A stretch of DNA of 64,000 nucleotides from Escherichia coli (GTDB lineage: Bacteria; Pseudomonadota; Gammaproteobacteria; Enterobacterales; Enterobacteriaceae), in the NCBI RefSeq assembly GCF_044324875.1, contig NZ_CP172185.1; one strand, written 5' to 3'. The translations under genes and the position numbers were made by a program. The notes beneath the pieces were generated by a model. The model was not told the origin of the DNA. It saw nothing but the letters and a program-made list of their open reading frames with translations, and searched no databases. Positions 62,031 through 63,657 of the stretch are shown in pieces (within the stretch, counting starts at the first letter, position 1; every line of letters begins with the position of its first letter).

Positions 62031-62258
62031 TCACACTGCCTGATATTCTGTATCATTTATCAGCATCGACCAGATTATTCTCGCGTATTTGTTAGCAATC
62101 TCCACAGTAGTTTTATTAAATTCGCGACTCTCCTTTAACTGCTTAACCCACTGATTTAGGTATACATCATTATTATTCGTAGCAACTCTAACGACAGCAC
62201 GGACGCCATGAATAAAAAGTGTTTGCAGATGCTTGTCGCCTTTTTTCGTTATATTCAT
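62031..62258 (-). pseudogene. IS110-family-like transposase C-terminal remnant
   Basis: …ITKKGDKHLQTLFIHGVRAVVRVATNNND…IANKYARIIWSMLIND. Confidence 0.4.
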
Positions 62259-62498
62259 GAGAACTTACCTGCAGCAACTCTAGTGCAGGCATGGAAGCAG
62301 ACCAAGCCATGCAGCACAGTGACGATCATTCTTAAATTCAGTGCCTTTGCCAATAATAACAGCAACAACGCTCGTGACAATTTCAGGACCAATGCCTTTA
62401 GCTTTTGCAATACGCTGACAGCATTCAGATTGCCTGGACAGGTCTCTATTTATTTATCAAAAAAGTTTATACTACGACCGAGATCGTTAAAGAGATCA

Positions 62499-63657
62499 TC
62501 TAAATAGCTGCGCCTAATACCACTACACTTTTGCCAGCCCATGTTTGCCTCCGGGGAACGGGCTGATGGTTTCCATAAAATGGCGAATTTTTTTCAACAG
62601 TTGCCACATTGAGCGGCACTGATGATTACGCGTTATTGTGTCGTGAAGTGCCTGCCATAGCCGTTCAACATGATTCACCCATGGCAAGTAAACCGGCTGA
62701 TAAATGACCCTGAACTTCGGGTTCTCCTTCAACCAGCGCTGTGTTTCCCGGCTTTTGTGGATAATGTAGTTGTCCACGATCAGTGTGATGGTTTTCACCC
62801 GAAGGTATGTCGCTTTAAGCCGCTTCAGCAGGCTGATGAACAGCGCCGAACTTTTGCTGTTGCCGCCCACATAGCTGACTTTACCTGTCCCGCTGTGCAG
62901 CGCTCCGGCCAGATCATATTTTTCATTCTGTCCCGGCGTGACCACCCGTTTTTGCTGTCCGCGCAGTTGCCAGTCCGCACCGATTTTGGGATTAAGATGG
63001 ATATCCACTTCATCTTCATAAAAGACCGGATGCTCTGTGCTGCATTCGTCCAGTGCTTTATGGATTGCTGCCATCTTTTCATCTTTATGCGGGTCACGGA
63101 TACGCAGAGTTGGCGCAGCCCTTCGCCACACAATCCCCGCAGACGGCAACCAGCGGCGAACGGTTCCGGCATTTAACTGGCAATCGGTTATCTCATTGAT
63201 TTTTATTGCCAGCAGTTCTGTACTCCAGCGTGAACGCTGGTAGCCAAAGTCGCCGGGAGAATGTTTTACCAGCTCACGTAACAGTGTGCAGATATGCTCA
63301 AACGACCAGAGACGGGCTCGCCCGGCAGGTAATGATTTCAGTCCCTCAACACCCGACTGCGTGAACCAGTTAATCCAACATCCAACAGAGGAACGGGCGC
63401 AGCAGAGCGTTCTGGCAACGTCGCTGACACGGTCGCCCCGGTGCAGCATCAGCATGGCAGTCAGTCTGCGGGCATAATTTTTATCGTGTGTTTTATGGAT
63501 GGCTTTCTGCATCAGGCGTCGTTCGTCACGGGAAATTGGTGCTATGATCGGCATTGCTCAGTCCGGTTGGTGATTTGTTTTGATTTGGCGATTGATCAGA
63601 TCGCACAATCCAGGCTGAGCTCCCTCAAAGTGATCTACTATTCCGCGCAGCTATTTA
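62499..63657 (-). mobile_element. IS630-like insertion sequence (IS630/Tc1-mariner superfamily), about 1.15 kb
   Basis: 343-aa transposase with terminal inverted repeats TAAATAGCTGCGCC…/…GCGCAGCTATTTA. Confidence 0.75.
62523..63554 (-). CDS. IS630 transposase
   Basis: MPIIAPISRDERRLMQKAIHKTHDKNYARRLTAMLMLHRGDRVSDVARTL…; 343 aa. Confidence 0.8.
   Translation of the reverse strand: MPIIAPISRDERRLMQKAIHKTHDKNYARRLTAMLMLHRGDRVSDVARTLCCARSSVGCWINWFTQSGVEGLKSLPAGRARLWSFEHICTLLRELVKHSPGDFGYQRSRWSTELLAIKINEITDCQLNAGTVRRWLPSAGIVWRRAAPTLRIRDPHKDEKMAAIHKALDECSTEHPVFYEDEVDIHLNPKIGADWQLRGQQKRVVTPGQNEKYDLAGALHSGTGKVSYVGGNSKSSALFISLLKRLKATYLRVKTITLIVDNYIIHKSRETQRWLKENPKFRVIYQPVYLPWVNHVERLWQALHDTITRNHQCRSMWQLLKKIRHFMETISPFPGGKHGLAKV

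Follow-up and report, generated by a model that had tools for sequence, protein, structure and literature searches.

The 64,000-nucleotide stretch of Escherichia coli DNA considered here (contig NZ_CP172185.1 of assembly GCF_044324875.1; hereafter the window) is part of an iha pathogenicity island, and at 61600–64000 it contains a stack of nested insertion sequences (IS). An IS3-family element is host to an ISSaen1-like element (IS110 family, IS1111 group), which in turn is interrupted by IS630 and by a further IS3-type element carrying another IS3-type piece. A second IS110-family remnant, near 52.6 kb, is the 3′ end of a different IS1111-type element. Taken as a whole, this account, which comprises the nested insertions, the site choice of the ISSaen1-like element, the distinct identity of the 52.6-kb element and the role of IS3 copies as landing pads, is very probably correct. 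The layered IS activity proposed in a preliminary description of the window is real, and it is deeper than was described there.

The 75-residue open reading frame (ORF) at 62031–62258 is the tail of an IS110-family pseudogene on the minus strand. Uncorrected, neither this ORF nor the short ORF near 52.6 kb finds a match in Pfam, and frameshift correction is needed; the translation corrected over 62031–62502 matches Transposase_20 (PF02371, E 7.7e-14) and positions 215–342 of the 343 of NF033542 ('IS110 family RNA-guided transposase', E 2e-26). The corrected protein has 76–79% identity with intact transposases from plasmids of Salmonella and Klebsiella, among them one that NCBI names 'IS110-like element ISSaen1 family' (the name given to a 90% protein cluster by the Prokaryotic Genome Annotation Pipeline, PGAP). 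As the intact reference we used the 1308-bp element at 1820–3127 of locus L004, which is 99% identical to the copy in L005. Its positions 617–1308 align to window 62499–61807 with 85.8% DNA identity over 695 bp, and its positions ~544–616 align to 63738–63658, on the far side of IS630; the relative in L002 also aligns across this junction. Because the homology to intact elements continues across IS630, the latter lies inside the IS110-family pseudogene and not beside it. IS630 had been described as directly abutting the remnant; instead it interrupts it, and homology resumes at 63658–63738.

In the window the ISSaen1-like element consists of three parts, all on the minus strand: the right end with a 224-nt 3′ non-coding region (61807–62030), recognised by identity to the reference and by a covariance model, the C-terminal part of the transposase pseudogene (62031–62502, element positions ~617–1083), and its continuation past IS630 (63658–63738, element positions ~544–616). 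There the element is truncated by an IS3-family left end (TGATATAAGAC..., 63739–64000, plus strand). The remainder is found in the iha pathogenicity island of NZ_CP080163 (locus L001, to which 47399 is added to obtain window coordinates), where reference positions 2–548 align to 21141–20602 (68001–68540 in window coordinates, outside the window), about 4.3 kb further on. This N-terminal half is a pseudogene with 79.7% DNA identity to the reference; the intact relatives carry PF01548. The window copy has acquired several 1-nt insertions or deletions and at least three in-frame stops, and the motif GL-P----S(t)G has been destroyed (GLLPCLH*SC versus GLVPRQHSSG in the intact relatives), a loss that bears on the function of this copy and not on its ancestry.

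The host of the ISSaen1-like element is represented by the 5′ end of an IS3-family element on the plus strand (61600–61806), comprising a probable left end and orfA codons 1–39. Its left boundary is approximate, the homology to the IS3 host in L005 starting at 61606. The orfA gene starts with an ATG at 61690, has an in-frame stop at codon 10 and ends exactly after the codons for ...GISEATYY (61690–61806); PGAP annotates 61720–61806 as 'transposase, missing C-terminus'. In the proposed order of events the IS3-family element would have been present first. The ISSaen1-like element would then have inserted into its orfA, exactly at the boundary of the Y and N codons in ...SEATYY^NWK... and with no duplication, after which IS630 and another IS3-type element would have entered the ISSaen1-like transposase gene, which also gained frameshifts and stops. 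The several separate 'transposase' fragments of the PGAP annotation are thereby corrected to pieces of one nested stack. The segment 63739–64000 itself contains a left end and orfA start (MFTEEEKIRAIELYF...), and from ~63844–63860 onwards another left end with its own orfA (…LKRTQRDYPLSFKIAVVEQVEKGEMTYKQ). These are two different IS3-type pieces lying directly side by side, and the nesting therefore continues beyond the edge of the window.

The IS630 copy is intact and 1153 bp long (62503–63655, minus strand; PGAP 'IS630 family transposase', WP_001354603.1). Its transposase ORF (62523–63554, minus strand, 343 residues) matches NF033545 (transpos_IS630) with E 1.5e-72 and 244.6 bits against a cut-off of 100, as well as DDE_3 (PF13358, E 1.8e-22), and the terminal inverted repeats, with arms at 62500–62531 and 63627–63658, are imperfect. 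These matches, the repeats and the flanking TA dinucleotides bear out the identification made in the preliminary description. The TA target duplication that had been predicted is present on both sides, at 62501–62502 and 63656–63657 as read from the sequence ends, and in silico removal of IS630 together with one TA gives ...ATCATC-TA-GTTCC..., restoring CTAG (C62500-TA-G63658). The sequence 5′-CTAG-3′, with duplication of the TA, is given as the target preference of IS630 (Tenzen & Ohtsubo 1991, as cited in a passage of PMC2170065). In length, in its 343-residue DDE_3 transposase, in its imperfect inverted repeats and in its TA/CTAG site the window copy resembles IS630 of Shigella sonnei, from which it shows no notable difference, and it appears to be ordinary. 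No empty-site allele was seen among the E. coli matches. Three 'joined' matches appear to contain an IS630 that is ~98 bp shorter. A few genomes, such as NZ_CP097170.1 (1015350–1017552, hit H21), have the same locus with this shorter IS630 in the gap, which suggests an internal deletion in that copy.

On homology, the 62-kb remnant is a decayed ISSaen1-like member of the IS1111 group. The intact relatives are 1308 bp long and encode a 338-residue protein with DEDD_Tnp_IS110 and Transposase_20 domains and the motif GLVPRQHSSG. They have 13-bp subterminal inverted repeats with terminal extensions of 6 and 4 nt (AATGGG-ATGGACTACCTCC ... GGAGGTAGTCCAT-AGAT), and only 66 nt precede the gene, versus 225 non-coding nt downstream; in the intact relatives of both element types of the window the upstream non-coding part measures only ~66–75 nt. 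These properties match the defining features of the IS1111 family listed by Siddiquee et al. 2024 (PMC11187229). The right end in the window reads TGAGGTAGTCAAT-AGAT (61807–61823), with the extension at 61807–61810 and the subterminal repeat at 61811–61823. The remnant shares with ISSaen1 the subterminal repeat, the scaffold of the non-coding region and the insertion site, but differs in being split by IS630 and an IS3-type element, in its frameshifts and stops, in the loss of the SG motif and in its mutated guides. With ~14% DNA divergence from the ISSaen1-named elements it would count as a separate isoform. The element is of a known kind, present here in decayed form.

The insertion site of this lineage is constant. 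Codon 39 of the decayed IS3-family orfA directly adjoins the right end of the window copy, and next to the left end, in L001, comes AACTGGAAG... (NWK). The same insertion point is found in the window, in L002–L006 and in about 30 genome loci, involving at least eight different IS3-family orfA sequences. The last 20 nt of the element were used to scan 100,044 species genomes for these genome loci, the carriers of which belong to Edwardsiella, Providencia, Rahnella, Pectobacterium, Klebsiella, Salmonella and other Enterobacterales. Across copies the element lies in orfA where the Y codon meets the N codon in ...ATFY^NWK..., in DNA form GCCACNTTTTAC^AACTGGAAG, with a flank consensus of ...TTCCAGTT on the left and (G/A)TA(A/G)(A/T)A..G.GGC.TC(A/G)GA on the right. 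When the flanks are joined in silico, uninterrupted HTH_Tnp_1 proteins result (E 1e-19 to 1e-25), from which it follows that the insertion is exact, duplication-free and orientation-specific. One ancient insertion that hitch-hiked with its IS3 host, rather than RNA-guided targeting, could also give a constant position, and the window copy and the L002 copy do have homologous flanks at about the divergence of the element itself (82%), so that this particular pair could descend from one event. However, the host orfA flanks are clearly different (MRKARFTEHQII...SEATYYNWKSKYGGMEAS, MKKTRYTEEQIA...SEATFYNWKKKF, MKKARFTETQIV...SNATYYNWKSKYGG, ...SDATFYTWHKKYGG), the similarity drops abruptly at the junction, and a guide sequence in the element co-varies with the flank, which makes hitch-hiking a very improbable explanation of the site as a whole.

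This co-variation is seen in the 3′ non-coding region. According to PMC11187229, the seekRNA of the IS1111 family derives from this region and carries the top-strand match first (5′) and the bottom-strand match after it. In the ISSaen1-like elements the region would encode an RNA that forms two stem-loops, both opened by a large internal loop. This form is seen in the consensus fold of 27 relatives, and the guide stretches lie within the two loops. In the first loop, on its 5′ side, the 7 nt that follow CCUGA form the putative T guide, of which at least four versions exist, each matching the right flank of its own copies (UUUUUAU with GTAAAAA, CUAUUAU with GTAATAG, UUAUUAU with ATAATAA and CCUGUAU with ATATAGG). 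For 24 distinct guide–site combinations the mean pairing is 6.33 of 7 positions versus 5.83 with shuffled flanks, and 1 of 10,000 shuffles reached the observed value (p ~1e-4), although this p-value is optimistic because the copies are related and the shuffling ignores that relatedness. The co-variation fits the published mechanism of seekRNAs and bridge RNAs, in which case the T guide would pair with bases 1–7 of the right flank. The candidate B guide, UCCAGUUGU (reference nt 101–109), is identical to the left flank extended by the two initial nucleotides of the right flank. Read 5′ to 3′, both element types of the window have the T guide first, then a hairpin, then the B guide, the same order as in IS1111-type seekRNAs.

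The second loop would carry stretches that match the two ends of the element itself. Reference nt 163–172 (AUAGAU|GUAA) correspond to the right end plus right flank, and nt 132–137 (CCCAUU) are complementary to the start of the left end. The bridge RNA of IS621 is the model for the assignment of this loop as the putative donor-binding loop. On the minus strand of the window the corresponding segments are the T guide UUUUUGU (61949–61955), the hairpin (61933–61945), the B guide UCCAGUUGU (61923–61931), the 5′ side of the donor loop (61891–61906) and its 3′ side GGAUAGAU|GUAAGC (61858–61871), the guides and the 3′ side being placed by guide match, and a −35-like TTGCAA follows at 61827–61832. 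Joining of the ends in a circle (predicted junction ...CCATAGAT|AATGGG...) would create a promoter, TTGCAA, 17 nt, GAT|AAT, of a kind like the circle-junction promoter described for ISEc11 (PMC11187229). Two further stretches were considered as guides. The hairpin TGGCCTCAGA, which has a 10-nt match to the flank in L004, was rejected because the hairpin loop varies freely among the relatives. UUAC in the second loop is ambiguous as a guide to the right flank, since GUAA inside the RNA offers it another pairing partner. Rfam release 15 holds no family for the non-coding region of either element type, the sole match being a chance microRNA (E 0.44).

The second remnant, near 52.6 kb, represents the 3′ end of a different IS1111-type element, truncated by an IS3-family insertion. 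It has kept its right end and 239-nt 3′ non-coding region (52411–52649, minus strand), which has 92.9% identity with its counterpart in an intact element from a Klebsiella aerogenes plasmid (locus L007), and the last ~67 codons of its transposase, with a 4-nt insertion, occupy 52650–52851 (minus strand, by homology to the intact element). Overall, 52411–52851 has ~91% DNA identity to the 3′ end of the L007 element, the 344-residue transposase of which matches NF033542 with E 6e-100. The ORF at 52650–52859 is an IS110-family tail with 85% identity over 61 residues to the intact K. aerogenes transposase (tblastn, E 2e-26). It lies after the Transposase_20 domain (NF033542 positions 302–340, E 3e-4), the N-terminal DEDD part being lost. 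The truncating IS3-family left end is at 52852, with an IS911-like orfA from 52870 (Pfam HTH_Tnp_1, 52870–53112). The right end of the remnant reads GGGACGTCCAT-ATAT, with the subterminal repeat at 52415–52425 (minus strand), and the repeats of this element type are ATGGACGCCC ... GGGGCGTCCAT-ATAT.

IS911-like IS3 elements harbour relatives of the 52.6-kb type in their terminal inverted repeat, at a point 6 bp inside it. The window flank GCTCAACAAAAG (52399–52410, minus strand) matches at 10 of 12 positions the flank GGTCAACAAAAA that lies beside other copies and corresponds to the inner part of the IS911-like inverted repeat. In four other copies the right flank is GGTCAAC(A/T)AA.A.TGGCCAC and the left flank, where present, TGTAGT; joined, they appear to form the left terminal repeat of an IS911-like element. 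The non-coding region contains guide-matching stretches placed much as their counterparts are in the ISSaen1-like RNA, all on the minus strand: the putative T guide GUUGACC (52556–52562), which is the exact complement of flank bases 1–7, then the putative B guide UGUAGUG (52531–52537), equal to the left flank plus 1 nt, and, as the donor-loop 3′ side, GGAUAUAU|GGUCGC (52457–52470), in which AUAUAU|GGUC corresponds to the right end plus flank. Abutted ends of this type are predicted to give TTGCAT-17 nt-TAT|GAT.

Several observations weigh against this account. The guide assignments for the ISSaen1-like elements are inferred from sequence, and compensatory base changes are seen in 0 of the 36 pairs of the consensus stems, compensatory evidence being absent because the stems are almost invariant. 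Against the flank of the window copy, GTAGTAA, the T guide of that copy (UUUUUGU) forms only three Watson–Crick and three G–U pairs; the end-matching guide of the copy is mutated as well (CCUAUU versus CCCAUU). For the 52.6-kb remnant the left flank is lost, and the right flank resembles the IS3 repeat for 12 nt only before it runs on into the upstream region of phoX. The covariance model yields no significant score on the non-coding region of this remnant (3.8 bits, E 0.27), though it aligns from end to end, so that homology of the scaffold with the ISSaen1-like RNA is plausible, not demonstrated.

The decay of the window copy of the ISSaen1-like element is uneven. Its non-coding region (61807–62030) is 91.6% identical to the reference, versus 79.8% in the coding part (p 5e-5), and 61837–61993 obtains 176 bits with the covariance model of the 27 relatives. 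Together with the demonstration by Siddiquee et al. that the non-coding region can act in trans (PMC11187229), this conservation and the well-preserved scaffold are what one would expect if the remnant were not pure debris and its 3′ non-coding region still yielded a seekRNA serving intact copies in trans, or had a regulatory role. We nevertheless consider such activity most unlikely. The guide positions, both the T guide and the end-matching stretch, are mutated; no promoter-like site was found by promoter scan on the minus strand upstream of the non-coding region, the natural promoter requiring a circle junction; the transposase is dead and the window contains no intact partner; and genomes with any match to the element have it at a median of one place. 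The window copy is therefore regarded as a fossil, and the stack at 61600–64000 is now inert, possibly with the exception of IS630.

The preliminary description had presented the two remnants as similar and had suggested that recombination between them was possible. In the corresponding scenario IS630 landed next to a pre-existing IS110-like fragment, and recombination of the two IS110-like fragments, as related copies, could rearrange the intervening 9.5 kb. Both remnants are indeed matched by IS110-family transposases, are on the same strand and have a C-terminal ANK..RIIW motif in common, so that the similarity holds at the level of the family. It does not extend to the DNA level. The intact relatives of the two remnants have 41% protein identity, the remnants themselves share 19 of 60 residues, and their longest exact DNA match is 8 nt (the scaffold motif GCCGGAUA) versus a mean of 9.3 after shuffling; blastn finds no match between them, nor to other IS110 copies in the island. 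Recombination is implausible because there is no shared DNA match longer than 8 nt, and the homology to intact elements that runs through the IS630 site disagrees with the first half of the scenario. The scenario as a whole is very improbable. The two remnants are independent insertions of different elements, and they constitute neither a duplication nor a recombination substrate.

The elements of the window may be compared with known RNA-guided systems. ISEc11, ISKpn4 and ISPa11, for which seekRNA has been shown by experiment (PMC11187229), share with them the subterminal repeats, the long 3′ non-coding region, a DEDD transposase of ~340 residues, duplication-free and orientation-specific insertion, the order of the guides and a predicted circle-junction promoter. 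Their targets are a short linear site, attC and REP, whereas here they would be IS3-family orfA codons or the IS3 terminal repeat. The bridge recombinases IS621 and ISCro4 (PDB entries 8wt6 and 9t56) belong to the same superfamily and use an RNA with two internal loops, one target-matching and one end-matching; by sequence only the C-terminal domain aligns (E 1e-6), and in IS621 the RNA is encoded upstream with a different guide order. ISEc21, which targets the DDE codons of IS3-family elements (PMC11187229), is likewise an RNA-guided IS110/IS1111-type element landing in conserved IS3-family coding sequence. It differs in lacking subterminal repeats, in an upstream location of the non-coding region and in hitting orfB; the elements described here are of the IS1111 type, and they hit either the terminal repeat or the helix-turn-helix codons of orfA.

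A parallel to the 52.6-kb type is provided by IS4321 and IS5075 of the IS1111 family, which reportedly target the terminal inverted repeats of Tn21-family transposons (Partridge & Hall 2003). The 52.6-kb type has a comparable position, a few bp into the terminal inverted repeat of a different transposable element, the host being a Tn21-family transposon for IS4321 and IS5075 and an IS911-like IS3-family element here. A target logo of IS4321 is mentioned in PMC11187229.

IS3-family copies would in this way act as landing pads for site-specific elements, and hence account for the layering of the region. We lean slightly towards the more general proposal that IS3-family elements are systematically parasitised by several independent RNA-guided IS1111/IS110 lineages, each with guides to a different conserved IS3 feature, that the T guide of the ISSaen1-like lineage has been naturally reprogrammed, and that the pile-ups in such islands are partly due to IS-on-IS homing. 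The features that may be hit are the orfA helix-turn-helix codons ATFY^NWK (ISSaen1-like), the terminal inverted repeat (52.6-kb type), the A-rich orfA end ...KKAEKIIKN (a third element, outside the window) and the DDE codons (ISEc21, published), and the 7-nt T guide of the ISSaen1-like lineage may have been reprogrammed to follow synonymous and Tyr/Phe codon variants of its target. If this proposal is true, IS pile-ups in such islands arise partly from homing of one IS to another rather than from random accumulation. The relatives of the window copy furnish a natural guide–target series for an IS1111-type element, with four guide variants and ~24 distinct sites in a conserved IS3-family coding motif, which could inform rules for mismatch tolerance in seekRNA and bridge-RNA systems and helps to explain why IS3 copies attract further insertions. 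IS630 is textbook knowledge, ISSaen1 is catalogued, and seekRNA targeting by the IS1111 family as well as IS3 targeting by ISEc21 have been published. In the literature searched (ISfinder lay outside that search) no description was found of the target of ISSaen1, of ATFY^NWK in orfA as the site used by the ISSaen1 lineage together with its naturally varying T guide, or of the IS3 terminal-repeat target of the 52.6-kb lineage.

The right end of the 52.6-kb remnant points toward a PhoX-family gene and is located ~180 bp upstream of it (52228–52410). An outward hybrid promoter from this right end to phoX, TTGCCT-17 nt-TATGCT, was considered and dismissed, being weak (8 of 12 positions) and unreported by the scanner. 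An unannotated fragment of ~160 bp with 85% identity to the non-coding right end (52410–52573) occurs at ~980 places in E. coli plasmids, mostly near the 3.9-kb coordinate of F-type plasmids such as the E. coli IncF plasmid p1-09-02E (locus L043), and its similarity ends exactly at the predicted terminus of the element. The third IS1111-type element mentioned above is a pseudogene at 18349–19640 of L001 (65748–67039 in window coordinates, outside the window). Its 3′ non-coding region, found by the covariance model (31.8 bits, E 7e-7), has its own putative guides, B GGGUCUUUUU and T-side CAGAAAAAA, and the pseudogene interrupts another IS3-family orfA at ...KKAEKIIKN|, in the A-rich part which is the usual IS3 frameshift region.

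The region 61400–64000 is 100% identical in 58 complete E. coli genomes, and the locus is ordinary, inert mobile-DNA debris. According to the PGAP features of L001, the island contains iha (58682–60769), the PhoX-family gene, decayed genes of an integrating conjugative element and a long run of transposase pseudogenes. The decayed conjugative-element genes, of the TIGR03756 and TIGR03757 families and with internal stops, are found at 55914–57775, between the two remnants and adjoining iha. A 121-residue ORF at 53989–54354 has no Pfam match and is labelled by PGAP as a transposase fragment without N-terminus; judged by eye, its C-terminus resembles ISL3-family transposases. At 48595–50241 the window carries an IS21-family istA ORF of 548 residues where the otherwise identical L001 has decayed ABC-transporter genes, and the island is therefore polymorphic for further IS insertions.

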